A stretch of DNA of 64,000 nucleotides from Candidatus Omnitrophota bacterium (GTDB taxonomy: Bacteria; Omnitrophota; Gorgyraeia; B26-G9), in assembly GCA_043814605.1 (NCBI GenBank), contig JBDRJV010000016.1, positions 16,218 through 80,217 of the forward strand, in the 5' to 3' direction. Shown one piece after another: positions 4,064 through 61,000 of the stretch (position 1 is its first letter; every line of letters begins with the position of its first letter). A model generated the notes under the pieces. It ran no database searches and was not told the origin of the DNA. It worked only from the letters and a program-made list of their open reading frames with translations. The position numbers and the translations under genes are program-made.

Positions 4064-4660
4064 TTAAAATGTTTTAATCTTTATCGAAAATAATTCCAAA
4101 ATAGGTTTTAATTTTTTTAAAGGCAATCCCACCACATTATAATAATCACCTTCAATTTTTTTTACTAAGATATCCATATCTTTCTGTACGGCATAGGCAC
4201 CGGCTTTATCATGATTTTTTAAAGCCAGTTTTTTAATTTTAGGGGGAGATAGTTTGCGGGTATAGATGGTTGTTCGGTCAATATCCAGGATGGTTTTATT
4301 AGTTGAGGAATCGATCACAGCAAGCGCAGTGTACACATCGTGTTTGGTATTGCTTAATTTAGTGAGAATTCTTCGGGCATCTTGCATATTGCGCGGCTTG
4401 CCAAATATTTTATTTTTATAAACAACAATTGTATCTGCGGCAATAATTATTGCATGGTTTTCTTTATTTTTCTGAGCTGCAATTTTTCGGGCTTTATTAT
4501 GGGCTAAATGCAGGGCATGGTGGGCAGGCGAAATATCACCTGTAGTTTTCTCGTTTATGCGGCTAGGCATAACCTTAAATTTAAGCCCGGCTTTTTCCAG
4601 TAATGCTTTACGCCGGAGCGATGCGGATGCGAGAATTACTTTACTTGCTTTCCGGATCAT
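4064..4660 (-). CDS. maf: Maf-like nucleoside triphosphate pyrophosphatase
   Basis: KVILASASLRRKALLEKAGLKF is the Maf/YhdE signature. Start trimmed to the internal ATG at 4660 (RBS AGAGGA upstream on the minus strand), which abuts the stop of the upstream ppiD-like gene. Confidence 0.75.
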   Translation of the reverse strand: MIRKASKVILASASLRRKALLEKAGLKFKVMPSRINEKTTGDISPAHHALHLAHNKARKIAAQKNKENHAIIIAADTIVVYKNKIFGKPRNMQDARRILTKLSNTKHDVYTALAVIDSSTNKTILDIDRTTIYTRKLSPPKIKKLALKNHDKAGAYAVQKDMDILVKKIEGDYYNVVGLPLKKLKPILELFSIKIKTF

Positions 4661-6270
4661 TGAAGCTGGTTTTCCTCTAAATAAGTTTCGGGATTGGCTT
4701 CGGCTTTGATTTGTGTAAACCAATCATTTAAAAATTCATTTTTCTTTTTAGTTAAAACTCTGGCCTGATAGTTTTCTTTTTCTTTGTTAAAAGTTTCCTC
4801 ATCAATGGGTGTTTTATTAATCAAAGCAGCAATGCAATATCCTTTAGGGGTATTTATAACCAAAGAAACCTGGCCTGCTTCCAGCTGAAATATGGTTTCG
4901 GCAAAGTCCTGGGCAAATCCCAGTTCCGGAATATATCCGTTACGGGTAAAATCTTTAGTTTCTTTTACTTCTAGATTCTTGCTTTGTCCGGCTTGCTCAA
5001 AGGATAGATTTTCACTAGTGCAGAGAGCAGCTATTTCCTCGCGAATTTGTTCAGCCTGAGCTTTGGCAATTTTTTTCGCTTCTTCTTTTTTATAATCTGC
5101 AACAACTTTATCTTTTACATCTTCATATTCAGGAATATAAGGGGCAATTTTCTTCATCGGTTTTAAAATATAATAAGCCGTGGGAGTTTGAATAATTTCG
5201 CTGATCTCGCCGATTTTAAGTGCAAAAGCGGCTTTTAAAAAAGGAAAACTTAACCCGACCTTGGGTATTTCCTCAAGCATGGAAAACGGCCCTGTTTCTT
5301 CTGCGGTTAACCCAAAACTTTCGACAACTTCACTAAAATTTTCACTGCTGTAAAGCATGCTGATTATCCGGCGGGATAAATCCAATGCATGGTTTTGCAT
5401 TTCCTTTTCAATCAGTTTTTCTTTGATTGCCGTCTTTACTTCAGCCAGGGGTTTATATTCTGGTTCTGTGATTTCTTTTTCCGCGTCATTTTTTGCTGTA
5501 ACTTTGTAAGTTTCTTTGTTATTGTTGTAATATTTTTCAATTCTTTCATCTGTAATATTGATTTCTTCCTTAAAATTTTCAAGTTTTATTTCCACATAAG
5601 TTACGTTTACTTGTTCGGGTTTTTTAAATGCTTCTGTATTTGCCTGATAATATGTTTTTAAAGCGGTTTCATTATCCAGGGAAACTGTATCTTCAAAGCC
5701 AGCGGGATCAATTAAGGCATACATCGCTTGTGCTTTTTCATTATTTTTGATGAATTCTTTTCTGATTTCAGTTTCATCAACAGTGATGTCTTTTATTAAA
5801 CCTTCCATAAGTTTATTCATAATTAAGGAATCACTAAGTCCTTTTTCAAATTCAGCCGGAGTCTGCTGGAAAATGCTCGAAATTATTAAAGCATAATTTT
5901 GCGGGGTCAAATCTTCGTATTTTAAAAAAGGCAAATTTCTGATGTATTCAAGCAATTCTTTATTGGTCACGCTAATTTTTCTTTTTTTTGCTTCGTGCAG
6001 GAGAATTAACCGGGTCCAGGTTTGCTCATCCAGATCAATAGACTGGTCGAATTTTTCTCCGTAACGCATCAGTGCATCATTACGTGCGGCGCGTTTTGCA
6101 TCAATAAATTCTCTCCATTGAATTTTTTGATTAAATATCTTACCCGCATATCCGGAACGGCGGTTTTTTACAGCGGAACCGATATTCCAGATAACAAAAG
6201 CCGGTACGATAAAAATTGCGATAACCCACATGATTGTTTTTGTGTATTTTCTTAAATTTTTAAATAACAT
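4657..6270 (-). CDS. PpiD/SurA-like periplasmic chaperone (membrane-anchored peptidyl-prolyl isomerase family)
   Basis: 537 aa. N-terminal TM anchor WVIAIFIVPAFVIWNIG, a long SurA-N-like helical region and a C-terminal parvulin-like segment; located next to maf. Confidence 0.5.
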   Translation of the reverse strand: MLFKNLRKYTKTIMWVIAIFIVPAFVIWNIGSAVKNRRSGYAGKIFNQKIQWREFIDAKRAARNDALMRYGEKFDQSIDLDEQTWTRLILLHEAKKRKISVTNKELLEYIRNLPFLKYEDLTPQNYALIISSIFQQTPAEFEKGLSDSLIMNKLMEGLIKDITVDETEIRKEFIKNNEKAQAMYALIDPAGFEDTVSLDNETALKTYYQANTEAFKKPEQVNVTYVEIKLENFKEEINITDERIEKYYNNNKETYKVTAKNDAEKEITEPEYKPLAEVKTAIKEKLIEKEMQNHALDLSRRIISMLYSSENFSEVVESFGLTAEETGPFSMLEEIPKVGLSFPFLKAAFALKIGEISEIIQTPTAYYILKPMKKIAPYIPEYEDVKDKVVADYKKEEAKKIAKAQAEQIREEIAALCTSENLSFEQAGQSKNLEVKETKDFTRNGYIPELGFAQDFAETIFQLEAGQVSLVINTPKGYCIAALINKTPIDEETFNKEKENYQARVLTKKKNEFLNDWFTQIKAEANPETYLEENQLQ

Positions 6271-43693: not shown

Positions 43694-43969
43694 ATGGATA
43701 AAGGTATTAAGTTTCTTGAGTTAGCGTCAAAGATTTTTAAAGTTTTAGCCTGGATTTCTGCAGTGTTTTTTGTGATAATATTTTTTATTGTGCTATTCGG
43801 AGCTGGGGGTGCAGATACGCCGCGGGTTGCCAGTATTATTTTCTTACTCGGTGGAGGTATTTATTTCCTGATTTTATTTAGTGCTGCTGAGATTATAACT
43901 CTCTTATTATCATTATCCTCTAAAGTTGATAAACTAACTAATCTTTTACAGGGAAAATCAGGCAGTTAA
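43694..43969 (+). CDS. small hypothetical membrane protein (two TM helices)
   Basis: 91-aa ORF with two hydrophobic helices; no motifs. Confidence 0.35.
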   Translation: MDKGIKFLELASKIFKVLAWISAVFFVIIFFIVLFGAGGADTPRVASIIFLLGGGIYFLILFSAAEIITLLLSLSSKVDKLTNLLQGKSGS

Positions 43970-44417: not shown

Positions 44418-44912
44418 ATGAAGAAAAATTACTTGTGGATACAGATTATCGCAGTGATTATAATTCAGGCCATGTTCCTGACACAGGCAGATTTTTCTCT
44501 TGCAGCATCCTATCACTCTCAAGAAACCTATCAGCAGGCAGCTTTAAAATTCCAGAAAATAGCAGATAAAAAAACAAGCCTGATCATTGGTGCAGCGTGT
44601 GTGCAAGCTACGCTTAATTCTTTATGCTTGCCAAAACTTACATTTAGCCGGATTTTTAGTATCTTAAGCAATACGAGTTTATCATTCTCAGAATTCATAT
44701 CTAAAAAAGAAGTCCGCCTAGTTTCTAACAATATTTATAAAGATTTTATTCATCATGCGGAAAATATATTTGAAATAAAATTTAATTACAAGTTGAATGA
44801 AATCAATCAAGATTTACGGGCTGAGTTAAAAACAAAAACAGACAAAGAATCAACAGCACCGCCAGTACTCGTAAAAAATACTTTTGATTGTTTTAAACAA
44901 CCGAACTGTTAA
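44418..44912 (+). CDS. hypothetical secreted protein, first gene of the operon
   Basis: 164 aa with an N-terminal signal peptide (IIAVIIIQAMFLTQADFSLAAS). Confidence 0.45.
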   Translation: MKKNYLWIQIIAVIIIQAMFLTQADFSLAASYHSQETYQQAALKFQKIADKKTSLIIGAACVQATLNSLCLPKLTFSRIFSILSNTSLSFSEFISKKEVRLVSNNIYKDFIHHAENIFEIKFNYKLNEINQDLRAELKTKTDKESTAPPVLVKNTFDCFKQPNC

Positions 44913-44944: not shown

Positions 44945-45313
44945 TTGCAGTCTAATAAAAGGATGGTGGTTCGGATGGAAGAAAGAAGAAGATATAAAAG
45001 AGAAAATAAGGAATTTTCCCTGCAGCTAAATGAGTTAAACAAAACAGACCATATAGCCATAAAGAATTCTTTTTGCCGGGATATTAGTTGTGTGGGTTTA
45101 TCAATATTTTCTTTTGATTTTTATCCGGTTAACCAGAAAGTGCATTTGAAATTATATTCAAGTACTTGGAATGAATTATTAGATACAGTAGGGAAAATTA
45201 TTTGGGTGAGGCAGCTGCCTTATCAAAATAAATATAGAATTGGTATAGAATTCACAAATACAAGCCAGGATGCAATGAAAAAAATTAAAACGATTGTTGA
45301 ATCCGGAAAATAA
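44945..45313 (+). CDS. PilZ domain protein (putative c-di-GMP receptor)
   Basis: RxxxR motif (RRRYKR) near the N-terminus and D-x-S-x-x-G motif (DISCVGLSI) about 30 residues later; 122 aa. Confidence 0.6.
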   Translation: MQSNKRMVVRMEERRRYKRENKEFSLQLNELNKTDHIAIKNSFCRDISCVGLSIFSFDFYPVNQKVHLKLYSSTWNELLDTVGKIIWVRQLPYQNKYRIGIEFTNTSQDAMKKIKTIVESGK

Positions 45314-45339: not shown

Positions 45340-46062
45340 ATGAAAAACAGAAAATTTATTAAAAGTTTGATCAAAAAAACAGGATGTGTTTTATTACTGC
45401 TTGGGGTTATCGCATTTTCCTCTTTAAGTTATGGCCAGATGGATGAGGTAAGCCAGCTTAGCGAAAATAACCACAAAGCCGAATTAGCCAATGAAGATAC
45501 TGGACAGGTAAAAAATATACCTTTTACCAATTATACCGGCGATGACCTGCCTTTAATGGGGGATGCGCGTGTTTCCAGTATTAAGGAAACTGTTACTGGC
45601 TTAAAAGATGCAGGGTATAGTTTAGATGAAATTGTTGGCGTATTAAAAAATGATGATAAAAATGCGCCGGAAATCAGTATCGCTTGTTTAAATGCCGGAT
45701 TTAACGGAACAAAAATTTTTCAGGCATTAAAAAAATCCGGATTTTCAGATCGCAGTACCGAAGCGGCAATTCCGCCGGCCCTGCGTACAAGCAGCCAGAT
45801 GTTCGTAACTTTAAATAGTAATCCAGATTCTGTGGCTGCAGAAATGGCAATGATCGAAGCAAATCCGTTTACATCTAGAGGCGTTAAAGATGCGGCAATA
45901 CAAAAAATTATGCAAGGTGAGCCAGAGATTCAAGACGATAAAACAACAAACACTTCCGGAATTAATCCTTATGAAGTAAAGGTTAATGTGGGAGTGACTT
46001 TTAATGGTTTAGGTGATTGGAATAATTTTCAAAATCAAAGGTTTGAAAACAATAAACAATAA
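45340..46062 (+). CDS. hypothetical secreted protein
   Basis: 240 aa with a signal peptide (VLLLLGVIAFSSLSYGQ); no catalytic motifs. Confidence 0.45.
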   Translation: MKNRKFIKSLIKKTGCVLLLLGVIAFSSLSYGQMDEVSQLSENNHKAELANEDTGQVKNIPFTNYTGDDLPLMGDARVSSIKETVTGLKDAGYSLDEIVGVLKNDDKNAPEISIACLNAGFNGTKIFQALKKSGFSDRSTEAAIPPALRTSSQMFVTLNSNPDSVAAEMAMIEANPFTSRGVKDAAIQKIMQGEPEIQDDKTTNTSGINPYEVKVNVGVTFNGLGDWNNFQNQRFENNKQ

Positions 46063-46076
46063 TTTAGGGGGTAAAT

Positions 46077-49000
46077 ATGAGCAGCCTAACTGGAAAACTG
46101 TGGTTTAAAATAACCGCGTTTATTGTCTTGGAAACGTTTTTGTTTACGATTGCGGATATATCCTGGGCCGCAGATTATCGTGACCAGAAAACGCAAGCGG
46201 AAAGATTAATGGATTTACAGCCGTTAAAAGATACCCGGGAAAACCTGTCCCAGGATGCCTTAGGCGATAAAATAGTGCTAACCCAGCCGGCAGTGCCGTT
46301 TTTAGGCATAGAACATCCGCAAGGCATGCTGACACAGAAGCCCATGTCCTTAACCGAAACAACTATTTACGGGTTAACAATAGCGGGTAATGATTTAACC
46401 ACAATATTTAAGTCCTTGAAAAATTCCGGCTCATCCGTAACAGATGCTGGCTTTAGTGCAGTCCGCCAGGGATTTAACAAAAAGGAAATTTATCATGCAT
46501 TGCTTAAGGCCGGATATGACGAGAAAGAAGTGAAAACCCTTTTAGGCAGTTTATTAAAAGCCGAAGAAGAAAAGAAAAAGCAAGCCGAAGAAAACCAGGA
46601 AAAAAAGACCTCTCCTCCGGAAGAAAAAGAACAAGTCCAGGGACAAACTCCGCTTGTTAAAGAACAAGCAATATTTGAAATTCCCAAAGTTGCCACTTTA
46701 CCGGTTAAAGAAAAAGCTGTGGAAATTATCAACGACTCCCAGAAACAATTTGCATTACACAGGCAAACAGTGGAATTTGTCCGGCTGATGATTAAAGAAG
46801 GTAAACGCGGTAAGGAACTGATTAATATCCTTAAAAAAGCCGGATTAAGTAATGAAAGAATTATTACTACATTAGCCCAGTTAGGGTTTAGCCTGCAAAA
46901 TATTATCAGTATTTTAAAACAAGCAGATTTAAACTGTGAGGATATTGTAAAAGCAGTACAGAGTTCGCAGTTAACCTATTCTAATAAAGATATTTATACT
47001 GCCTTAATTCAATCCGGTTATTCGGATAAAGATATAATCAGTGCGTTTAAAGATGCCGGAATGAGCGCAGAAGATATCTTAAAGTTAACTACAGACTTAG
47101 GCCGCAATATGATTATTATCGCCCAGGCAATGCTTAATGCTGGTTTTAGCATGGCGGATGTAGCCCGAGCATATGTTTTAAAGGCAATGCAATGGTCTTA
47201 TGATCTAAGTGTGAATATCGTTAACTGTGCAGTGGAATCATTCAGTGCATTCTTGAATAATATCGGGCGAAAATTTTCCTCAAAAGAAGACCTAGCTTAT
47301 GAACTTATTCTGGATGATATTTTGGCTACCGGAGAGGTGGATTTACAGGGTAAGAACATCATGACTTCTATGCTGGCGATAAAAAATATAGCCACTAAAT
47401 ACGGGATTGATTTACAAGGATATAAGTTAACTATAGATAGTTTACAAGAACTAAGTGGTATGTCCATCCTGCACCTTGATGCAGACCACTGGGTTAGCTT
47501 AGTCGGTATTGAAGGGGATAAAGCCACGATTATTGATAACGGAACACGTAAAACAATTACTCTATCTGAACTTCAGGTGCGTTGGGACGGAAATATTTTA
47601 GCTCTCAATAAAGATAAGATTAAGGAGCATAAACTTTATGATTTGCAAATGCGCCAGATTCGCGGGGCAAGCTGGCTTTCTGATGCTTGGGAAGATGCGA
47701 CAAATTGGGTAAAAGATGCAGTGGAGGGTGTGGGAGATTTTTTTGTTGATGTATATAACGGGGTTAATGATTTTGTGCAAGGTGTTAACAATTTAATCGT
47801 GAGTTTTTATTATACTGCTTGTGGCAATCAGCAAAAAGCAGATTATTACTGGAATAAAGGAATGCAGCTTATTGATCAAGTTGTCTTGAAGATAATTAAG
47901 GCAATCCCAAATAACGGTATTCAACATGTTCTTGAATCTGTTTGGTCTGGTATAAGGATGTATGTACAAGGAGTGGGTAATGTTATTAAAGGGTCAATAA
48001 TGATGCTCCGGGGTGATTTTAAAGAAGGATTCTATCTTATGACTGCAGGCTTTACGCAGATGGCCGTTTCGGGTTTGGTTGCTTTATACAAGGTTTGCGG
48101 AGAAGATGGAGGCAGATTCATAGGACGATTTATTCAATGGGTAGTACGGATTGTTGCGGCTATCTTAACCTTTATTTTTACCAAAATTCTTGGTTGGACT
48201 GTAGTTGGCATGATTGTTGGAATGATCATTGCATTTATAGCAACAATGATTATTTGTATGGTTGATTATGATTTTGTTCAGTATGTTTCCACTGCTGATG
48301 CGGCGGGGATTAGTAAAGTTATGGGGAAAGTATTGGCTGCGGCTTGTATTTCAGCAGCAGTTGCAGCAGTAGGTTTTTTTGTTGGATATGCGCTTGATGG
48401 CCTCTTTAGCAGTACAGGAAGCGAATTAGCAACCACAACAAACACAGGAACCACAACAACAGCAAGTTCAGTCACAAGCCAAGTAGGAACAGGACTATCT
48501 ATAGGAACAACCAGTATGGTATCAACTACAGCACAGGCTTTTAGTACTATAGCAACTAACTTAGCTACAATAGGAACTAGTTTAGCGACTGCAGCATATA
48601 ATTTAGGAGTTTCTTTATATCTGGCGGTAATTAGTTTTAGTATCACTAATATAATCGGATCTTTACTTATGTTTGTCGATGCATTTATAGAGTTCGTTAT
48701 TGCTGTCAAGGACTCATTCAAAGGATTTTTTTCAGAATTTTCGAAAAATGTTAGTGCTGACATATCGCAAAATTGTGCAAATTCCGGAGTTACTGTCAAT
48801 CAAGAGGTACTAAAGGAAGCACTGGACAGTGGATTAAAAAATATGCTGGTTCAGCAGGCTGTTATGACCGGTGTTGTTTATGGCTGTGAGGCCGCAGGAA
48901 TTGATGATCCTTATCTTAAAGCTGTAATTGTTGGCGTTGCTGGTGCATTAGCGGGTAGTTATGGTGGCCCAGGGGGTTGGGAGGAGACGTTTAAAGAAAT

Positions 49001-52000
49001 GGCTGTTGCTGCGGGCTCAATGGTGGCAGAAGAATCGATCAGGCAAATGGGGTACCACGAAAATTGGGATCCTTTACTTACAAATAGCCTAGCTTCAATA
49101 ACTGGGTTTACAGTCCAGGCAGGTTTTGGAGCAGCTTTAGGCGCGGATTATTCAATACAAGATGATCCTGATACCAAAAAAATAGAAACTGCATATAACA
49201 ATACAAATCCTTTTTTCACAAGGTTGGGACATAATTTAAGAGCAGGATTAGGAAATGTGGTGGGAGATATTGCTTCGGATTATGTAGCTAGAATTTGTCA
49301 GGAAAATGAAGTAGACCCAACAATTACTGCAGTACTTAGTTCATGGGCTGGAACATTTACGACATCTTCTGTAGATTATATGACCGGTCAGACAGATTTG
49401 GGTTATTTAAATACTTTGGGAAAAGCAGCGGAACAAGGTACTTACGATGCTGTTTCAATTGTTACTTTTATGGAAACTAAAAAGTTATTAATGAACGAGC
49501 TTGATTTTACAGAAACCCAGGCTACAGGCATGGCCTATGGCATGACTTTACCCATGAGATTTATGTTTAGCCATAATAAAGTTGCAGAGGAAAATAAAGA
49601 TGGTTATATTGGCGGTGAATTTAAAGATGGGAAAGTATCATATGAAGGAATAACAATTAAGGATGAGTTTATTCGCGAGCAAGTAGGTGAGTTTTTTGAG
49701 AGCTTAGGGTATGGCAGCAAGCTTAGCGGTAATACATATGAACGGCATGATTATAATAGTAATTATAGTAATAAAGTATCATCTTTTGAATATATGTTAT
49801 TTGGCCAAGGCCTTACCCAGGATTTAGAGGGTAATTTTTATAGCAATGACGGCAGCATCAGTAATTACGGTACGCTAAATAAAAATAAGTTAGAGTATTT
49901 AAATTATTGGGCAGAAAAAAATCCCGAAATATTTGGCGAGAAATTTGATAGTAATACTGATGTAGAAAAAACAACGGATACCAATACTGATACTAAAGCT
50001 TCTAATTTAAGTTACGGCGATGCCTTGTTTACTACGGTTTCTGATGCACAGCTCAGTTATTATAATAAAAAAGGCATGACAAATATTAGTCAGGGACTCT
50101 CTGATGCGAGTGCTCACTACAAATATCAAAATAAAATAGACAGGTTAAATAAAATGGAGGGCGTTGACGTAAAGCTGGGAGAAGAATATGGGACTAAGAT
50201 TGTAGTAACTAATAATTCAGGGCAGGCAACAGAAGAATTATCATCAGAATTAAACAAAAATGTGGGAGAAGGAGACAGTGCTTTTTATGATTCTGCAGAC
50301 GCTTTTATCAATAATAATCCTTTGGTAATTACAAAGGCAGAAGGTACGAATTTTAGTACTGAATTAAGCAATGGAATGGAAGTTAAGTTTAATAGTTCTG
50401 ACAATGTATTTGAAGGACAAGGAGTTATAACAACACCAGTAAATTCGACTAACATAAATCAACTTTGCCCCAGTTTGAATGTTAATGCCAATTTACTAAA
50501 TGCTAACCAATATAATAATTATTCTTTAGTTGCGCAAGTAACTGTAGATTTGAAAAGCAAGACAATCATCCAAACAACCGATATGAAATTAACTGCAACT
50601 GCTACATCAACTAAAAACGTGATCCTGCCGGTCAATATCGGTAACCACACAGCTTATATTGGTGTTGAAACAAATGTAAATTTCAGTAATCAGGATTTAG
50701 TTTTAAAAAGTGATTCTCAGCTGAAAAATGATTATCAGCCTACAAATGATAATATTAAGGCAACAAATACCAGCGAAAAAGCAGCGGATGTTATTGTAAA
50801 ATACGACGCCGAAAATAAAGTTACGCTGAGTGTAAACAATATGGGACAAATAGGGATATCGAAAGAGACAATTAAAAATTTTAATGATTCAAAACAGTTA
50901 GTTAGTGATGTGATTGATTTACCGAATGGCTGCGATACAACCAAGACAGAGTTTGAACTTGTCTATAATACAACAGAAGGTTTGCAATTAACCGCAGTTG
51001 AAAATATTGCTGCGGGTAAAAAAATAAATTATGATGGCGAAGATGCATTCATAACCAGCAGCTCGGCACAGCTTATCTATAACGAGTCAGGAACAATAAC
51101 ATCGATTAAGGGGGAAGATACAAGGTCAAATCGATCAGGGAAAGATGTTACAGGGGTAGAAATTAAAACTTCCAAGGGTAATATTCTGCTGGAAAATAAA
51201 AACCAGATTTCTTTTGCCAATGAAAAAAGTGGTTTTCTTTCAGGTTTAAGTTCCTACTTTGGTATCGGCGGCGGAAATGAGTTTGTGATTGAAAACGGCA
51301 ATGTTTTGATGCTTACTAAGTACAACCTTGGCCAAAAAACAGAATATGAAATAATCCGCAATGGCCAAGAAGGCGGAACAAGCCAGGAAACAAGAGAATT
51401 AAACGAGATAATAATTGGCGAAGATAAAGCTTCGGGTAATTTGTTTATAGCCGAAGGGTGTGTTGTGAACATGGTAAAAAATGATGTTGCATTCACAAAT
51501 AATGATGTAATCCATAATCAGGCGGGAAGGGCTATTAATGTTGGCGGCTTGCAAATTAAACAGGGTGAAAATACTGCGATTCATAATAATCAAGCATTTA
51601 AGTGTATAGAAGTGACAAAACCTGTTGCTGAGGCTCGAGGGGATCTTAAATATCTGCTTGTAGTAAATAATTTAAAATCTAAGGAAAGTTATGATTTTCA
51701 AGTAGAAAATAATAATGTAAATTTACCTTTAGGTGATATTGATAGTAATGACATTTATTTAACTCAGAATGGTTCTCTGTCGTTTTTAACAGATAAAGCG
51801 TTTCAGGGTTCAGAAACAAAAAATCTTGATTTAAATGCAAAAACCACTACTTTTAATTTGAATCCTACAGAAATTAAAGGTCAGGTTGAAATAGATTTTA
51901 CACAAATCGGGCTAAAAGGCAAGACAGAAGGCAAAGGGTTACTTATTGGAGATAAATATGTAACCGGAGCAACCCAGCTAAGTGGAACAGGCAGCGGTAC

Positions 52001-55000
52001 CATAGATGAAACAAACACAATTATAATAAATGTTGATAAGCAAAATAATGAATCTTATTACAAGGGAGGAGAAGTAGTTTTAAGTGAAAACGGGTTAGTG
52101 TATAAACCCGGAGATAAACTTGAGATCACTGGTTTAGACAAAGGCAATACTTATGATCCAGGTCAGGGTCAATATACAGGAGCTTATGTTTCTACAGGTA
52201 ATGTAAAAATAATAAATGATGGAACTTACAATGTTAATCAAAATTATGTTACCAGTGAGAATCAAAATAGCCAAATCATATTCACGCTTACTAATGCTAA
52301 TGATCAAAAAATAGATTGTTTAATGAGTTTAAATCAGCCTATAGGAGAAGCAAAGGCTGGCCAGCAGCAACAATATACATTTAATTTTGCTAAAGAACAT
52401 GAAGGGTTGTCTTTAAATAGTGCATCTGGCAGAAAATACACCATTACACTGGATGAATCTAAATATATTCCTTTAAGTCAATCAGTGGCTTGTACAGGTC
52501 AGATTGAAACAGTAGAAATTAATGGGAATTCAAGATTAACAATCAATCAACAGGGTAATGAAGTTACAGCGGATAAGATTATTTTAACAGGTTCTAAAAG
52601 TACAATTGATGCTGGAGCGCAGATTGGCAAACAGACTGAAGATAAAGTAGAAATTATTGCCGGTGATTTGCATATTGATGCTTCGGATAAGCGTTTTGTT
52701 GGTACGGATACAGTGGCTACTTCTAAAATTGACCCTTCTCTTCAAGATAAAAAAGATCAAGAAACCCCAAAGACAATCACTTTTTCTAAAGATAATAAAC
52801 AAGCAACTATTCATTACACGGGTAATTGTGAATATTACTTAACCGGTGATGTTAGTTTTAATAAAGAAGGTCTTTATCTGGATAATGGAACTATATTTAA
52901 GGTTGCTGGTTCTGAAAATATTACTGGCTTTAATAATGCCGTAACAGTTTGTGATACAAAAGTCATTGAGGGGAAATTTCTCATTAATAATAATACTTTA
53001 GTTGCCCTTGATTCAAGTTGTCTTACCGTTGATGACCGGGCGCAAAGCGTTAATGGAAGTGAGAATTTATTTACGGTTAGTTATAAAGTAGAACTTACGG
53101 AGAAAGAAGGGATTTCTACTGTAAAAAGCATTGAAAAAAATTATATGTTTAATCGGGAGAACATTAATAGCCAAATTATATTTGATCAGGATTTAGGTAT
53201 AATCGGTAAAGTTGTAGAGAATAAAAAGGGAGAAATTTCCCTAAGTATTAATACTGCTGGGGGTAAAGAAGTATTAACAAATAAATATGTGGATGTATCA
53301 GTAAAGGAAACAACCCATGGTACAGGCAAGATTGTTACTTTAACAGATTCTAAAAATAGCATTATTGCTACAGCTGGTAAGATCCAGACAAGTGATGGGA
53401 AAAATCTTACTATGTGGAGTACTCAAAACGCTACCACTTATTTGCTTGAGGGTAAATCTCTAGCCCAGGGGCAGCAAATTTCTATTGGCAAATTTGACTA
53501 TACTGCAGGAAAAGATTTAGCTCCGATGCGTATTGAAACCATGAGTTTTACAACAAAAAATAGCACAGCTTTTAATTTTCAAGGAAACAAACTAAATCTT
53601 TCCGGCAATGTGAATTTGCACATCAATGCTTTTGAGCAGCAGCTGGGCATATCGGGTACAGATAAGCGCGGTAAATTAACGGGTATTGAGTTTACAAAAG
53701 CCAACAATGAGCAGTTTCTTTTAGTTAATGGCGCCCAGGCCCAGATAGTTAAAATAGATGAAAATAAATATGAATTGATTGTGACCAGCGGAACAGCCTA
53801 TGCGATTACGGATAATACTATTGGCAAGAAGACTGATTTTAAAACAGATAAACAACTCGGAAAAGATGGAGGCAAAACTACTGGTTTAAATGAAATTGTA
53901 ATAATCGATAAACCAAATGGCGATATTGCGATTGAAAAAGGGTCTCAATATACGGTTGCTCGTAATAATGAAACCGGACAGACAGAGGTTGTATTTAAAG
54001 AAAACGATAAGATTATTAATAATAGTAAACAAAAGATTACAATTAATGGGTTTACAGTGGCAGAGGGGAAAACCGCAGCCATAAAATTTGATCATGTTTA
54101 TATCCAAGGCAATACTTACAGTTTTCAAGGCAAGGATTACACCTTAACTAATTTTAATGACTTTGATTTAATCTGGACAGATACCCGCAATATCCAGGGC
54201 ACAATATCTGAAGCTAATTTACACGCAGATAAAAATGCAGTTAACTTTATTTTTAAAACTGATAAAGCAACTTATGAAGTAAAAAGCGGTAAAGAAGTTG
54301 GGTTAAAAGGTAATGCTTATTATCATATTAATGACATTGATGTTTGGGCTACTGGGATTGAAGATAAGTTTATTAAAGATGAAAACGGCAATACAGGCTG
54401 GAAGTTTGAAAAATTAGTGAACGGATCTACGTATAAAACAAAAGTTAACGGTGTTGAGGTTGTATTTATTGTTAAAGACAATAAATTAATGGCCAGTAAC
54501 GGTAGAGAAATTGGCCCGCAAAATTTAGGAAAGAATAAAAATTATAAAGATTCTGAAGGTATTACACATGATGATGTAGATATTTATGTTACTCAGGCAC
54601 TGGCTAACGGCCAGTTTGTTTTGGGTACAGACAAGCAGGGTGCAAACGCTTGGGGTCAGGTTCAAGCAGGAGTTAGTGAAGGGGTGTCTGATCTGACAAT
54701 TCAAGGCAATACTCATGCGAGTATTACTTCTGAGCAGGTAACCAGAAAAGACGGTACGCAGCAAACCGTGAATATTTATAGTACAGCTGCTGACGGGAAT
54801 TTCAAGATAGTATTTACTGCAGATAAAGACCTGAATAATACGGTTATTAAAGATAATCTCAAGGGAAGCCATTTAGATGTTTTGGGAGAAGCAGTGATAA
54901 ACGGAAAAACAGTTCTTGACGGTGCAGCAATAGATTATGTTGAGAAAAACGGTAATATTGTGCCTGAATTTTCTCAAGGTTCAAGAATATTAGAACATGA

Positions 55001-58000
55001 TTTTGGCTCAGGCCAGCAGATAATCAGTGTTTACCAGGGTAAAGATATTAAAGGCAATGATTTGGGCTGGAAATGGCATGCGGATAGTTCTCTGGTAGAT
55101 AAAGAATGGAATAATAATATTTATATTGATGGTAAAGCTAACCCAGTAACCTGTAAATTATCTGCTACAGAAACAGGGTTTGAAGTATTGATAAAAAATG
55201 GACAAGGGGTAAATTTAGGAAGGTCTGAAAATTTTGTAGATTCTCAAGGCATAAAACATAAAGATGTGGATATTTGGGTTACCCAGAAACTGCCTAATGG
55301 CGAATATGTATTTATGGTAAAAGATAAGGGGAAAAATGACTGGCAGCAGGAGCAATTAGATTTAAAAGGCGGTTCTCAGGAATCCATACATGGATCAACT
55401 TATGCAAAAGTTACTGATCAGGAAATTAACGGAAAAACAATCCGTAATTATTCAGAAAAATCTAATGGTCAATTCCAGTTAATATTTACGGCAGATAATC
55501 AGCTTAAGAACATGGGCATAAAAGATAATTTAGATGGCAGCAGCTTAGAAGTTGTTAATGCAAAAATCGGGGATAAATTTATTGTTAAAGGAGGGGTAAA
55601 TTTTATCCGGGATAAGCAGGGCAATGTCCAGGCGAATTTTGATAATGGCACTGTATTTCTTAATGCAGACGGCACACAAGGGGTTGTTACCGAAGGGGAG
55701 ATTCCTGCGCCAAAGGCTCCGGAAAAGAGTTATCTTGATAACTTACAAGAGAGATTTGGCCCGGAGGTAAAAGGAGCATCTTTAAAATCAGATAGCTGGC
55801 AGCAAATTAATAGTGAGAAAACCGGGCTCTTTGGTGAATACAAGTATGATTCTAAAACCGATACTTACACATTTAAAGGAACATATATTGTTTCTGAAAG
55901 CATTGAGATTTGGCAGGCAGAGTTGAATTTTACTAGTGATTTTCAGATGAAATCTGCTTCCGGCAGGGTTTTTGCCAATGTGGAGAATGCAAAGATAAAT
56001 ATTGCAGGAGATAATTTTGTGATTAAGACTGATCAAGCTGTCTCCGGTATGATTGAAATAGGTAAATATACTAACCAAGGAACAATTATCCTGGATCCAT
56101 ATTCTGATTTGCAGCTTTATAACCAGGTTAAAAATAATCAGGTTTTTATTTTTGGCAATGAGCAGGGTAAAAATGCAGAGTTTTTTATTAATAAGGAAAA
56201 GAATTTAGTTTTATGGAACGGCGTTATCGATGAAAGTAACGGGAGCTTTAGCTATTCCAGTACTGATCAGACCCAAACTAAAACTAAAACACAAGAACAA
56301 AAACCCCAGCAGCAGCAAAAACAAATACAGACTGGAGTAATTACTGATATTAAAATTTCCGGGAATGAAAAAAATGGCTATAACTATTCCGGAATTGTGG
56401 AAGTAAGGCAAGGGGAAAAGCAGATTTTAAATTGTGAAGGTGCAAGATTAATCGTAGAAAAAAGCGGATTCCAGTTTGGCAATATTGATTATGATTATAA
56501 TTCTTTATTAATCGGGGATAAAAGCGGTAATTTAGTGGCTCAGGACGGCTCAAGCGGAACAAAGCATCTTAGTTTTGAGGGATCTGATAAAAAGGTAGAT
56601 GTTAATTTTACTATGGCAAACGGCGGAATGAATATTACAAACATCAGCGGAGATACACACATAGATTCACAAGTAAAGACAGACTGTGGGGAAATTTCTT
56701 ATGAATATGATTTAGTTGTAGTAAAAAATCAGCTGATCAGTATAAATCATACGACTTCCTGGATTGAGAATAATCAGGAACCTGTAATTATTAATGAAAA
56801 AAATGCAAAAACAGTAACTTTTGAAGATCAGGGCAGGGATTACAGTTTTGAAAAAAAAGGCGATATCTATGTGCCTTATGCAGAGGTTAAGACGACTAAC
56901 TCAATTAATAGTTTGGTATTGGGAAAAGATGCTGAATCCTCTATAACGATACAACTTACTCCGACAAAAGAATTAACTTGTGTGTATGATTTACAGGGCA
57001 ACTATACTACCAAAGCTGGGCAAGATACGCTTGAAGGCCAAAAAGGCACTGTATTTAATTATGTGTATAACAATGAAACAAAAGAAGTGTTTGTCCCTGA
57101 TGGAACCATTTTTACTGCAGACGTAGAGAATTCAGGGGTTGTGATTACCGGAAAATTAAATATATTAAAAGAGGGTCATTTTAATCTTAATATTGGAAAA
57201 GACCAAGTTCACATTATGCCAAGCTTAGGAGGTACTGATAAAACCACAACTGATGATCGGGCAAACAAGATCAAGGTGAATGTCGATGTGCAGAATATGC
57301 TTTATGCAGAAGAGGGCTGGATAAGTTTGTATCAGGGTAATTTTTTGCCTGGGGAAAATGATTGTTTAGTGAATAATAGCGCAAGTTCAATTACGCTGCT
57401 TACTCCGGGACAAGACAGTAAACCCGTAGTGGTTAAAACAGGACAAGAAGCAATAATTAAAAATAACCAGGCCTATATTATTGGTAGTCAGGTTACCGCA
57501 GAAAAAAATTATATAGATAAAAACAATAGAATTTGGGTTGAGGGAACCTATGATATTTCCGCAGAAGGTAAATTTGTAGTAGTTGATGGTTATTTTATGC
57601 AGCAGGATTATCAAGCTAAAGATGGAACGATGTTCAGATTAAAAGATGATCAGTTTTTAACTGGCTACTCAGATAATACCGGACAAATTTGTTATGATCA
57701 GGGGCAAGATGTTGTCGCTTCTAATGTGTTAACGGATCAGCAGAATAATCAGCTTTCTTTGTTTACTAATTTAAAAACAGACCAAGATGGCATGCTTACT
57801 GAGCAGAATTATTATAAATTAGATAATCAGCTGCTTGAAACAGGTCAAAAATTCATTTTTGATGAAAAGCCCTATGTTATGCAAGAGCATAATGGGGAAG
57901 TTATGCCTTTATTTAAATCAAATAAGAATTTTACTAATGATAACCCGTTAATTTATTATAAAAATGGAAATAAAATTGAATTAGTCGGAGAAACTACTTT

Positions 58001-61000
58001 ATTGTATAACATTAAAGACCAGATGGTTGGTATCGAAGGCCAAACGCTGATAAAAGGAGAAAATGGTAAGATTAGCGGTACCTTATTTACAACAAATGAT
58101 GATTCTCAGAGCCAGTTTATAATTGAAAATAATAATAAGGTTACGCTGAAAGATGGCCAGCTGAATATTGGTTTTGCGCACCTTTATGCTGTAGATAATT
58201 ATAATACTTATCAAAAAGAAACCCTAGATTTAATTTCTAATGCAAGCTTAGGAAACTTAAAATCCGATACCAAAGAAAATCATATCTATTTAACCAGTGA
58301 TGCCGACAAAAATATCATCATAGAAAAAGGCAGTAAATTTACCGTACAAGATAACAACTTTGTAATTACTAATAATGATGTAATTTATACCGATAAAAAT
58401 TTATGGGTTACAATTTTAGTCGGATCAGGCGCAGCACAAGAAAAAATAGATCTCGGCCCTAATTCCGGAGGAATGGTCAAGGACGGGAAATTTTATGAAG
58501 CCGGAGATAGATTTGCGACAAATAACAAAAATATTCAAGGCAAAGTCGCGATTAATGCTACAACAAACAAGATTGAACTTGTTTACGAGGTGGTGGGGGT
58601 AGAAAATTCAGGAGATATCAAAGGAAACGGTAAAATCTTAAAGATGAATGATGATTATGTGATCAGTATCCAAAAAACTGATGAGGGCGATACAGAAAAA
58701 CGTTTATATGAGGTGGTCACTTCTCCTAATGGGCAAAAAAGCTTAAAGCAAGTTGATCAGATTTCTGTCCAGCAAGAATATAGTGTTGATTTTGGGCAAC
58801 GGACTTTAATCGAAAGCACTACCGTCAGTGTAGATGAAAAAGATATTGAGATAGAGACTGATTATAAGCTGATGGGGCATAAGCTAGCAGTAGGAGAAAG
58901 TGTAGATGTTCGCGCAATAAGTTTTCAGCAAGATCAAGATCCAGAATTTATTTATAATGGGCGTAAATATGTACTTACAAAGTTAGAAAATGGAAAGTTT
59001 ACTCCGGAAAGTTATGATGTATATGAAGCAAACAGTGAATTTATTCAGGGGCTGGTAGTTTTAGATAGTAAGGGAAGACAAGGCCAGATCGATCCTGAGA
59101 GGAATAAAAAAGTTACTGTAATGTTTAATCTTCAGGGAGAGGCCGTGGCTTTAATCGGAGATGGTTTTACCAGAGATGAAAGAGGAGAAAAATATTACGG
59201 TGTTGTTCTCACTGCAGAACATGGGGATCTATTAATTAAAAATGGGAAAAATTCGATTAGTATTAAAGATAATACGCTGACACTTATCCAGGCAGATGCG
59301 ATTACGATGACGCTTTGGGATAGCGGCCGGGAAATAACCCAGGTAAAGGATTCAGATCCGGGTTTAGGCAAGAGTGAGGCTCCTAAAGAAAACAAGATTT
59401 CTGTTACTAAAAGTCAAGGGATTGTTTTTGTTAATTTAAAACAAAACATTACGCTTTTTAATAATGATTGGTTTTTAACAGCGGGAGATGTTCTGGTGAA
59501 TAATTCTCCACAAGCTGAGCAAATACATATTTTATCAGCTGATGGGCGGACAATGTACAGTGTGGAACACGGACAAGAAGCAGCTGTAGAAAATGGAGGT
59601 ATTAAGTTAACCAAAGGTATCAATGCAATTGATTTGAATAACGCGAATATTGTTCAATTAGATAAAAACGGACAGCCCACAAAAACGATCACTAATCCCG
59701 GAGAAGATACTAGCTGGGTAAATGGTAATTATTTGGTTGCCACCAAAGGGGAGAATGGAAATTTTGAATTTACATCTGCGACAGGAGAGAAGTTAGGCTG
59801 GAACATGGCTAGTTTATATAATGTTCAAGCAGATAAAAATATTGTGGAAGTATCTTATCTTGGGAAAAAGATTTCATTAGATTCAACACAGTTTACTAAT
59901 GAGAATGACGGCGAGAGTTTTGGCTCTAGTTACTGGGCTAATGAATATGGGGTTAATGATACAGTATTATTAGAGCAAAGTGATTCATTCTCAACTTCTT
60001 TAAATACATTTTGGCAAACAAATAAAGCAGCAATTGGTGAAGCTGCTTTAGTAATCGGTATAGGTTTAGCAGCAGCAGCGGCTATAGTTGTTTTGCCAGC
60101 ATCTGTTTATATTACTGCGGCTACTTATGGTTCGGTTTTAGGTGTAATGGCTTTAACGGTATCTCTCAGCACCGATAGTTACATGGAATTAGGTAATATC
60201 TTAGCTAATGCTGAGGATACAAATAGTACTGAGAATCTATTCTGGGGCCGCGTTCTTTTTGAGACGGCATCAGCTTTTAGAACAGTGGCAGGGAATTTGG
60301 GAGTGGGGGGTCAGGTACACGGGGAAAGCAATATAGAAACGCCGATTATTGGAGGAGTTAATGCCGGCCATGTTATCGCAGCTGCTACAATTATATGCAT
60401 GGTATACACTGCCGGAGGGCTTGGATTTATAAAGGCATTAAAAGGGCCTTTAGTTTCTCTTTCCAATATTAATCTTGGATTAGTAGGAGAACAAATGTTT
60501 ACCTTAGGAAAAAATTTAATAGGGAAAGGTTTGAACGGAAAAGAAACTTTGGTTAAATCTTGGACTGGCTTGTTAAAATCTTTTGGGGCGATAAAGGGTT
60601 TGCATGTGGGTTTGTGGACAGCAGGGCATATGGCTAATATGCTGCCTGATCATAATCCAGCCTCAGAGTTATATCAATTAGTGCTTTCTCCATTTGCAAT
60701 GGGTGCAGAGTTTACACCAGAGGGATTATGGACAACTGTAAAAGGAGGAGAAAATTGGGATGATATAATCATGACTAACCTACACTTAGCGGGGTTTGCC
60801 GGGCTGATGTATTTTAGTGGGCCGATTCTAGAGTTATTGGCAAGTTCTAGAATTGGTAATTTTAGCGGTCAGTTTTTAGAGGTTTCATTTGGCGAAGGTG
60901 CTGCGGCAAGACTTTCAAGCAGAATGATAAACGGGTTAATTGAAGAAGGCGTCAAAGAGCAGGCATTAGGGGTAATTTTACGTCCTATTTTTGGCAATCA

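Follow-up and report, generated by a model that had tools for sequence, protein, structure and literature searches.

The DNA considered here is a window of 64,000 nucleotides (nt) from a Candidatus Omnitrophota bacterium (GenBank assembly GCA_043814605.1, contig JBDRJV010000016.1, positions 16,218 to 80,217 of the forward strand), and positions given below count from its first letter. A giant open reading frame (ORF) in this window encodes a protein that carries, near its N-terminus, a domain of peptidase family C39 and, shortly behind that domain, a sequence resembling the double-glycine motifs at which C39 peptidases cleave leader peptides. The reading favored here is that the domain would cut its own chain at this motif. 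The features that bear most directly on this reading are listed below, with residue numbers referring to the giant protein.

46077..64000, + strand: giant ORF, defined by the lack of a stop codon up to the window end, a ribosome-binding site and homologues among Omnitrophota giant proteins
47208..47615, + strand: peptidase C39 (papain-fold cysteine peptidase) domain, residues 378-513, assigned from Pfam, profile search, structural model and hhalign
47226..47228, + strand: Cys384, predicted nucleophile (N-C-A), from conservation, alignment with the canonical Cys and its place at the start of a helix
47487..47489, + strand: His471, predicted general base (D-H-W-V), aligned with the His of LahT150, PCAT1 and the canonical set
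47535..47537, + strand: Asp487, predicted third residue of the triad (I-I-D-N-G), aligned with the Asp of PCAT1, LahT150 and the canonical set
47634..47669, + strand: double-glycine-like motif L520-Y-D-L-Q524-M525-R-Q-I528-R-G530-A531, followed by S532, from a strict regular expression, conservation and the model
between 47669 and 47670, + strand: predicted scissile bond between A531 and S532, from the double-glycine consensus
48117..48719, + strand: first transmembrane (TM)-like cluster, residues 681-881, from 19-residue Kyte-Doolittle windows scoring above 1.6 at 681-735, 745-778 and 842-881

The giant ORF

The giant ORF begins with an ATG at position 46077 that is preceded, 7 nt to the 5' side, by a ribosome-binding site (AGGGGG). 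It is free of stop codons up to the end of the window at position 64000 and therefore encodes at least 5,974 amino acids (aa). The nearest homologues of the first 900 residues are 51-60% identical over aligned stretches that cover 40-64% of the query, and for the N-terminal ~530 aa the identity to giant proteins of Candidatus Omnitrophota is 51-61%. These homologues are partial or complete giant proteins, the nearest of which come from Candidatus Omnitrophota or PVC-group metagenome genomes, and several carry the NCBI name 'cysteine peptidase family C39 domain-containing protein'.

Hydrophobic segments of the giant protein are found at residues 8-32, 681-881 and 4650-4785 (Kyte-Doolittle). The original prediction, which was made from the DNA sequence without database searches, placed a C39-like domain N-terminal to the first TM cluster, and the layout of the protein agrees with this, with a hydrophobic leader at residues 8-32 preceding the domain and the cluster at residues 681-881 following it. 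The cluster also sits downstream of the predicted cut site. The number of helices within it is ambiguous (4 or 5) from hydropathy and charge, and the flanking charges are not decisive.

Peptidase_C39 is the sole Pfam family above the curated cutoff in the 5,974 aa. ABC_membrane and ABC_tran domains were not found by Pfam in these 5,974 aa, nor was an ABC exporter with a C39 domain found among the ORFs of the 64-kb window. The C39 domain of the giant protein is thus not part of an ABC exporter.

The C39 domain

The strings from which the domain had been recognized, VNCAVESFSAFLNNIG...HWVSLVGIEGDKATIIDNGTRKTITLSELQVRWDGNILALNKD, lie in frame at positions 47220-47615 of the + strand (residues 382-513). 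Pfam family PF03412 (Peptidase_C39) matches the domain at E 1.4e-10, with a score of 41.5 bits where the gathering score is 22, a significant profile match that bears out the presence of a C39 domain in the giant protein. The match spans profile positions 45-131 of 133 and hence the His/Asp half only, and matches to NCBIfam models (a bacteriocin ABC exporter peptidase model and FapD) likewise begin after the Cys. Because the Pfam match is confined to the His/Asp half, the Cys block was examined separately.

HMMER, run exhaustively against 1.84 billion representative proteins, yielded 129 relatives, many of which are thousands of residues long and some of which have two or more detectable copies of the domain. 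Conservation was counted over 100 related domain copies aligned with MAFFT, and the clade was aligned by hhalign, profile to profile, with 12 canonical C39 domains. Four of these 12 were confirmed by Pfam as Peptidase_C39 together with ABC_tran, three of them also having ABC_membrane (Peptidase_C39, ABC_membrane and ABC_tran in P0088, P0094 and P0109; Peptidase_C39 and ABC_tran only in P0101). The comparison of the clade with the canonical domains gave a probability of 99.8% (E 7.2e-28), and it pairs N383-C384 with the D-C of the canonical Q-x5-C-G-P, and His471 and Asp487 with the canonical His and Asp.

Searching the sequences of the PDB with the single sequence gave a weak result (6MPZ, E 0.048) so that a profile search was needed, and this search matched PCAT1 (3.5e-10), LahT150 (5.9e-9) and ComA (2.9e-6). 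An AlphaFold2 model of residues 360-545 was built from a 41-sequence alignment and has a predicted local distance difference test score (pLDDT) of 89.3 and a predicted template modeling score (pTM) of 0.84. When this model, the kind of structural check that had been proposed with the original prediction, was compared with the PDB by Foldseek, the first 25 matches were all C39 or C39-like domains and the 26th was the periplasmic C39-like domain of EpsAB (4G54). The best matches were LahT150, PCAT1 and ComA, LahT150 (6MPZ) with a target-normalized template modeling score of 0.75 and a root mean square deviation of 2.0-3.0 Å over 129-136 columns. Other matches were the toxin 9L5U, StbD-CT (8SSK, 8SSM), the HlyB C39-like domain (CLD; 3ZUA) and 3B79. 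Membership of the domain in peptidase family C39, with its papain-like alpha+beta fold, is confirmed.

Catalytic residues

The assignments of a catalytic-Cys block and a His/Asp block in the original prediction are both supported, and neither of the two outcomes named there as refuting it was observed. Position 384 is Cys in 95 of the 100 aligned copies and Ser in the other 5, and the residue before it is Asn in 90. In the model, Cys384 (model residue 25) is the first residue of the central helix, which spans model residues 25-36. His471 is present in all 100 copies and opens the strand formed by model residues 112-120, while Asp487, which ends the next strand, occupies a position that is Asp in 81 copies and Glu in 14. 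His471 and Asp487 are thus located on consecutive strands with a spacing of 16 residues, the same spacing as that of His101 and Asp117 in LahT150 (PMC6363468). G489, W503 and G505 are strongly conserved as well among the 100 copies. Relative to canonical C39 domains, the domain has an insertion of ~14 residues after the first helix and has N-C-A in place of Q-x5-C-G-P. The conservation of the triad suggests that the C39 domain is catalytically competent.

A double-glycine-like motif behind the domain

The consensus for double-glycine leaders consists of Leu at -12, three variable residues, Glu at -8, Leu at -7, a hydrophobic residue at -4 and a final Gly-Gly, Gly-Ala or Gly-Ser (PMC6363468). 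Residues 520-531 of the giant protein, which begin 15 residues past G505, the last conserved residue of the C39 domain, fit this consensus. A strict regular expression for the motif has a single match in the 5,974 aa, at residues 520-531, against 0.4 matches expected by shuffling. Across the 100 domain copies, position 520 is hydrophobic in 91, 524 is Glu, Gln or Asp in 66, 525 is Met, Leu or Ile in 73, 528 is Ile, Val or Leu in 82, 530 is Gly in 82 and 531 is Ala, Ser or Gly in 81. Only three columns of the 41-sequence alignment are invariant, namely Cys384, His471 and G530.

The strict pattern occurs 50 times in 131 proteins (204,506 residues). It is found within 55 aa downstream of 39 of the 134 C39 copies that have downstream sequence, and this rate of 0.29 per downstream segment, compared with 0.003 expected from the rest of the proteins, amounts to an enrichment of ~95-fold. 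The canonical ABC-exporter C39 domains that were compared are without such a motif behind the domain.

The model places residues 522-527 (-10 to -5) in a short helix and residues 529-530 (-3 and -2) in an extended conformation. The mean pLDDT is 97 for residues 520-529 and then 67 and 55 directly past the motif. In the crystal complex of LahT150 with its leader, a hydrophobic groove holds positions -4 to -11 as a helix of two turns, and positions -1 to -3 run linearly through the cleft. The conformation predicted for the motif matches that of this leader.

Two groups of relatives have the motif in settings of their own. In P0055, P0056, P0076 and P0086 the C39-like domain is found at residues ~1,900-2,950, a long way from the N-terminus, and has Ser for Cys (G-Q-S-A-F). 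All four keep an I-[RK]-G-A motif that is followed by a hydrophobic stretch rich in Gly, Ala and Ile, and in three of the four a TM-like score is reached right at the motif. This subgroup could represent a Ser-nucleophile variant or a non-cutting binding module ahead of a membrane anchor. In P0085 (~510-550) and P0090 (~607-650) the motif runs directly into a Hint/intein-like sequence, C[CF].AGT..LMADGS.K.IE, and judging from these sequences two different self-cleaving modules would sit back to back.

A module boundary at the motif

Residues 1-1500 of the giant protein were compared by BLASTP with the relatives, and 80 high-scoring segment pairs (HSPs) were considered that cover the domain and leave at least 100 subject residues. 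Of the ends of these HSPs, 36 fall at query residues 527-536 and none at residues 520-526. P0010 (6,321 aa) is 61% identical to the giant protein up to residue 527 and has no collinear similarity to it over the remaining 5,791 aa, in which there are only two short, out-of-order matches. The same break is seen in P0018 (7,803 aa) and P0022 (4,961 aa). What follows the motif in the relatives is varied, and ranges from amphipathic Lys-rich helices leading to TM segments, through acidic linkers of Gly, Asp and Ser, to a TM segment directly or, in two cases, the Hint-like sequence. Since homology ends at the motif and the sequence beyond it is heterogeneous, residues 1-531 act as a conserved cassette, to which cargo that differs between proteins is attached exactly where the cut is predicted. 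Juxtamembrane 'shedding' was rejected as a general rule, as a TM-like segment lies within 40 aa past the motif in only 16 of 82 motif-bearing copies.

Leader, helical repeats and upstream genes

The remainder of the cassette, ahead of the C39 domain, consists of a hydrophobic leader and arrays of short helical repeats, and both of these have counterparts in small ORFs directly upstream of the giant gene.

46092..46175, + strand: hydrophobic leader, residues 6-33, GKLWFKITAFIVLETFLFTIADISWAADY, with a Kyte-Doolittle peak at residues 8-32 and conserved in homologues
46740..47210, + strand: array of the short-helix repeat xxLKxAG[FY]SxxxI, with a period of ~14 residues, leading into the C39 domain
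44418..44912, + strand: ORF 44418, 164 aa, a paralogue of giant-protein residues 8-94 with the same leader (BLASTP E 3e-9)
45340..46062, + strand: ORF 45340, 240 aa, with the repeats of giant-protein residues 71-372 (BLASTP E 6e-8)

The leader resembles a signal peptide and ends in S-W-A, a site of the AxA type, and it is unusually conserved for a signal peptide. A looser form of it, K.W.K.IA..V..F....[IV].WA..[DN][FY], begins many distant long proteins that bear C39 domains. Neither a prepilin (class III) signal nor a KxYKxGKxW signal was recognized in it by NCBIfam or Pfam, and these two identifications were dropped. The leader may be a lineage-specific sorting signal.

The short-helix repeats occupy most of the cassette ahead of the C39 domain, a first block being located at residues ~95-165 (window 46359-46571), and the last repeats before the C39 domain are kept even in distant relatives. 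AlphaFold2 models residues 222-378 with a pLDDT of 89 as ten helices of ~10 residues or more. The fold matches only designed helical-repeat proteins, and these weakly (template modeling score ~0.24). No inference of function from the fold is possible, since only designed proteins match. Going by this model, the repeat seems to form a natural solenoid of a kind not described before. The repeats are also present in two separately encoded signal-peptide proteins, ORF 45340 and a 437-aa neighbor of the giant gene in the related locus L002 (6658-7971), the latter having a lipobox-like N-terminus.

The upstream gene order is common to two related genomes (L001 and L002), in which IspF, CysE, CysS, ROK, a small membrane protein and an ORF of ~160 aa occur in this order. 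A PilZ gene and an ORF of ~230 aa are optional after the ~160-aa ORF, and the giant gene then follows. ORFs of 154 and 158 aa with the same kind of leader occupy the position of ORF 44418 in the two related loci. ORF 45340 has a canonical Sec-type signal peptide, and at its position L002 has a 223-aa ORF with the same repeats.

Several further observations concern these upstream genes. The ORF at window positions 44945-45313, between ORFs 44418 and 45340, encodes a PilZ domain (Pfam E 1.4e-9), a domain that binds cyclic diguanylate (c-di-GMP); it is kept in L002 and absent in L001. The LapG protease releases the LapA adhesin under the control of c-di-GMP. By analogy, and as pure speculation, the PilZ ORF may tie processing of the giant protein to c-di-GMP. 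A two-TM protein of ~90-100 aa (..IFKVLAWISAVFF..LGAGG.DTPR..), which is without a Pfam family, is encoded at the same upstream position in all three loci (window 43694-43969, L001:6955-7227 and L002:4357-4671). Finally, a K-[TE]-[ST]-x-P-P motif is common to the N-terminal region of the giant protein (window 46605-46619, residues ~177-181) and the C-terminal parts of the 44418-like ORFs. Its variants are KTSPP in the giant protein, KTGPP in its homologues and STAPP, SRAPP and TRGPP in the small ORFs (44418, L001 and L002).

The distal part of the ORF

Far downstream of the cassette, residues ~5731-5750 (window 63267-63326) form a Walker-A patch, EIKTGAGKTEYLIHLNALAG (EIKTGAGKT..LNALAG), which resembles the SecA motif EMRTGEGKT..LNALTG. 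BLASTP against an approximate E. coli SecA sequence gave an E value of 0.16 with similarity confined to the Walker-A patch, in an ORF that is cut by the window end. This candidate SecA-like region near the window end has neither a Pfam match nor a PDB sequence match, and no homologue of the last 500 residues in the window was detectable among 5.8 billion proteins. Residues ~5090-5400 (window ~61350-62300), after the second TM cluster, contain a second type of short helical repeat (e.g., LSELATLTGQDIEEVTETIGVSI) with weak IF2_N-like matches (E 2e-5) slightly under the Pfam cutoff.

A model for processing of the giant protein

The original prediction allowed for two functions of the domain, autoprocessing of the giant protein or processing of a partner such as the secreted proteins encoded just upstream. 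The former gains support from the conserved motif at residues 520-531, and we consider it somewhat probable, from the sequence comparisons and the structural model, that the peptidase processes the giant protein itself just past A531, either in cis or from one copy to another, and so frees the cassette. The cassette (residues 1-531) would comprise a signal-like leader, the short-helix repeats, the C39 peptidase and the peptidase's own double-glycine recognition motif. The motif helix, D522-Q527, would set L520, M525 and I528 (-12, -7 and -4) into the hydrophobic groove of the peptidase while G530 and A531 (-2 and -1) would enter the narrow active-site cleft, where Cys384, His471 and Asp487 would cut the chain after A531. 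After such a cut, the rest of the protein, which is membrane-embedded and highly variable, would be parted from the cassette and start at S532. The cleavage itself, the exact bond, intramolecular action and a site outside the cytoplasmic membrane are what we infer here. There is a precedent in StbD-CT, a C39 toxin domain that processes itself in cis, cutting behind a Gly-Gly of the neighboring linker (bioRxiv 10.64898/2026.05.07.723447).

The C39 domain is more likely to be extracytoplasmic than cytoplasmic, unlike the C39 domains of ABC exporters, which are typically on the cytoplasmic side. This leaning rests on the signal-peptide-like N-terminus with its terminal S-W-A, a looser form of which is common in distant relatives, and on the recurrence of the repeats in ORF 45340, which has a Sec signal, and in the lipobox-like 437-aa protein of L002. 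Hydropathy by itself is an insufficient guide to the topology, a difficulty that West-Roberts and coworkers also report (bioRxiv 10.1101/2023.11.21.568195).

A broader proposal, which is credible and is offered tentatively, is that residues 1-531 are a portable, self-excising maturation cassette that has been recombined onto many unrelated giant cargos and is cut at the cassette/cargo junction between A531 and S532. Under this proposal, relatives with two to five C39 copies, some of these copies being followed by the motif, would be true bacterial polyproteins. If true, the junction would also be the first processing site in Omnitrophota giant proteins that is concrete and open to a test.

Several observations weigh against cleavage at the motif. 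The strict regular expression was written after the site had been seen and, although it follows the published consensus, it accepts Gln or Asp at -8 and does not distinguish among aliphatic residues where the consensus is hydrophobic. The Gln that contributes to the oxyanion hole at six residues before the Cys (Q-x5-C) is absent, this position being Ser in 25, Gly in 28 and Thr in 22 of the 100 copies; the role of the Gln has itself been questioned for LahT150 (PMC6363468). Many internal second C39 copies in the relatives lack the motif. Four of the five Ser-for-Cys copies still keep it, so that binding without cleavage may be a further role of the motif. The linker between domain and motif is only ~15 residues long and may or may not permit an intramolecular cut.

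Alternative explanations

It is possible, though we consider it unlikely, that the motif is a pseudo-substrate or latch that fills the groove of its own C39 domain and is left uncut or is cut only upon a trigger. The motif would then auto-inhibit the protease, or the domain would mainly bind or chaperone the adjacent segment, like the non-catalytic C39-like domain of HlyB with its substrate. The motif was modeled together with the domain at very high confidence and is retained in the four Ser-for-Cys relatives, both of which would be consistent with a latch. C39-like domains that bind without catalysis exist, and two of them, HlyB CLD (3ZUA) and EpsAB (4G54), are among the fold matches; in addition, the processing of StbD-CT depends on redox state (bioRxiv 10.64898/2026.05.07.723447). 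However, the Cys, His and Asp are conserved far beyond the needs of a pure binding module, domains of the HlyB type having lost the Cys, and a processing boundary would better explain than a latch why homology between giant proteins ends where the motif lies.

Alternatively, the domain could act in trans as a leader peptidase for separate small proteins, such as the products of ORFs 44418 and 45340 or other secreted proteins, which is the canonical role of family C39 (PMC6363468). The two small ORFs, whose N-termini are signal-like, are located just upstream of the giant gene, and related loci show the same synteny. This part of the original prediction did not fare as well as autoprocessing, however. 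The original prediction had proposed that the giant protein and both ORFs be searched for leader-like cleavage motifs, and the single strict match in the giant protein has no equivalent in ORF 44418 or ORF 45340, which are paralogues of parts of the cassette rather than leader-bearing peptides. When the strict regular expression was applied to every ORF of at least 40 aa in the window, the four other matches fell inside housekeeping proteins (the Walker A segment of an ABC ATPase, ClpC, ROK and a PIN protein), and separate substrates with N-terminal double-glycine leaders, in the style of the AMS/PCAT exporters, were not found nearby by this expression. With no ABC_membrane or ABC_tran fusion, and with the best candidate site being in cis, action in trans is improbable. 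A role as an effector or toxin protease that is delivered to prey or competitor cells, like the Tox-PL-C39 of polymorphic toxins (StbD-CT, 9L5U), appears to be just as improbable. C39 toxin domains do occur among the structural matches (9L5U, 8SSK and 8SSM) and Omnitrophota giant proteins have been proposed to be predation factors (West-Roberts 2023), but the domain is located in a conserved N-terminal cassette next to a leader and not at a polymorphic C-terminal tip, and its own recognition motif follows it in cis. ORFs 43694, 44418 and 45340 have no Pfam family so that no immunity gene is identifiable among them, the PADLOC library not having been searched.

Relation to known systems

N-terminal C39 domains in Omnitrophota giant proteins have been published already (West-Roberts et al. 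2023, bioRxiv 10.1101/2023.11.21.568195), and those authors suggested that the C39 domain may cut the giant protein or other substrates. A cluster of 24 proteins with a PF03412 architecture was described in a 2026 preprint (bioRxiv 10.64898/2026.06.07.730766). The protein described here shares with the published ones a giant multi-TM ORF with a C39 domain near the N-terminus, by a signal-peptide-like segment. What differs is the addition of the cis motif, its enrichment and the cassette/cargo boundary; a double-glycine motif or cleavage site is not in West-Roberts 2023 nor, by term count, in bioRxiv 10.64898/2026.06.07.730766. Omnitrophota giant proteins typically carry a divergent SecA_DEAD domain, whereas in the part of the ORF within the window only the Walker-A patch resembles SecA. 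The C39 domain belongs to a class that both the literature and database annotation already cover, and the cis double-glycine site is an added detail.

The peptidases of AMS/PCAT exporters (LahT150 6MPZ, PCAT1 4RY2 and ComA 3K8U) have the same fold, the same order of Cys, His and Asp, the same His-Asp spacing of 16 and the same recognition consensus. The giant protein differs from them in that it is without an ABC transmembrane or ATPase domain, has the ~14-residue insertion and has N-C-A for Q-x5-C-G-P. Its motif is on the same chain as the protease and C-terminal to it, whereas theirs is at the N-terminus of a separate peptide, and its C39 domain is probably extracytoplasmic whereas theirs is cytoplasmic.

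StbD-CT (CdiA-like; 8SSK/8SSM) is similar in that its C39 domain, too, belongs to a very large exported protein and has a double-glycine site next to it, in a linker of the same chain. Cleavage of StbD-CT in cis after Gly157-Gly158 was shown experimentally (bioRxiv 10.64898/2026.05.07.723447), while the site in the giant protein is predicted from sequence. The site of StbD-CT precedes the protease, whereas that of the giant protein follows it, in a conserved N-terminal cassette. StbD-CT also differs as a polymorphic toxin at the C-terminus that is paired with an immunity protein and additionally cuts GyrB/ParE. HlyB CLD (3ZUA) and the periplasmic C39-like domain of EpsAB/GspA (4G54) have the same fold but bind rather than cut. 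They are without the catalytic Cys, and as Cys, His and Asp are conserved in the giant-protein clade, the domain is not a CLD.

Implications for Omnitrophota giant proteins

Whether the Omnitrophota giant proteins, which are 10^4 to 10^5 aa long, exist as a single chain or as cut pieces is a question that was raised in published surveys. Those surveys could not address processing because no cleavage site was known. The motif behind the C39 domain gives a precise and testable prediction, namely a cut after A531 that is dependent on C384. If true, C39 peptidases would also be built-in maturation proteases of very large surface proteins, in addition to their roles as leader peptidases of ABC exporters and as toxins.

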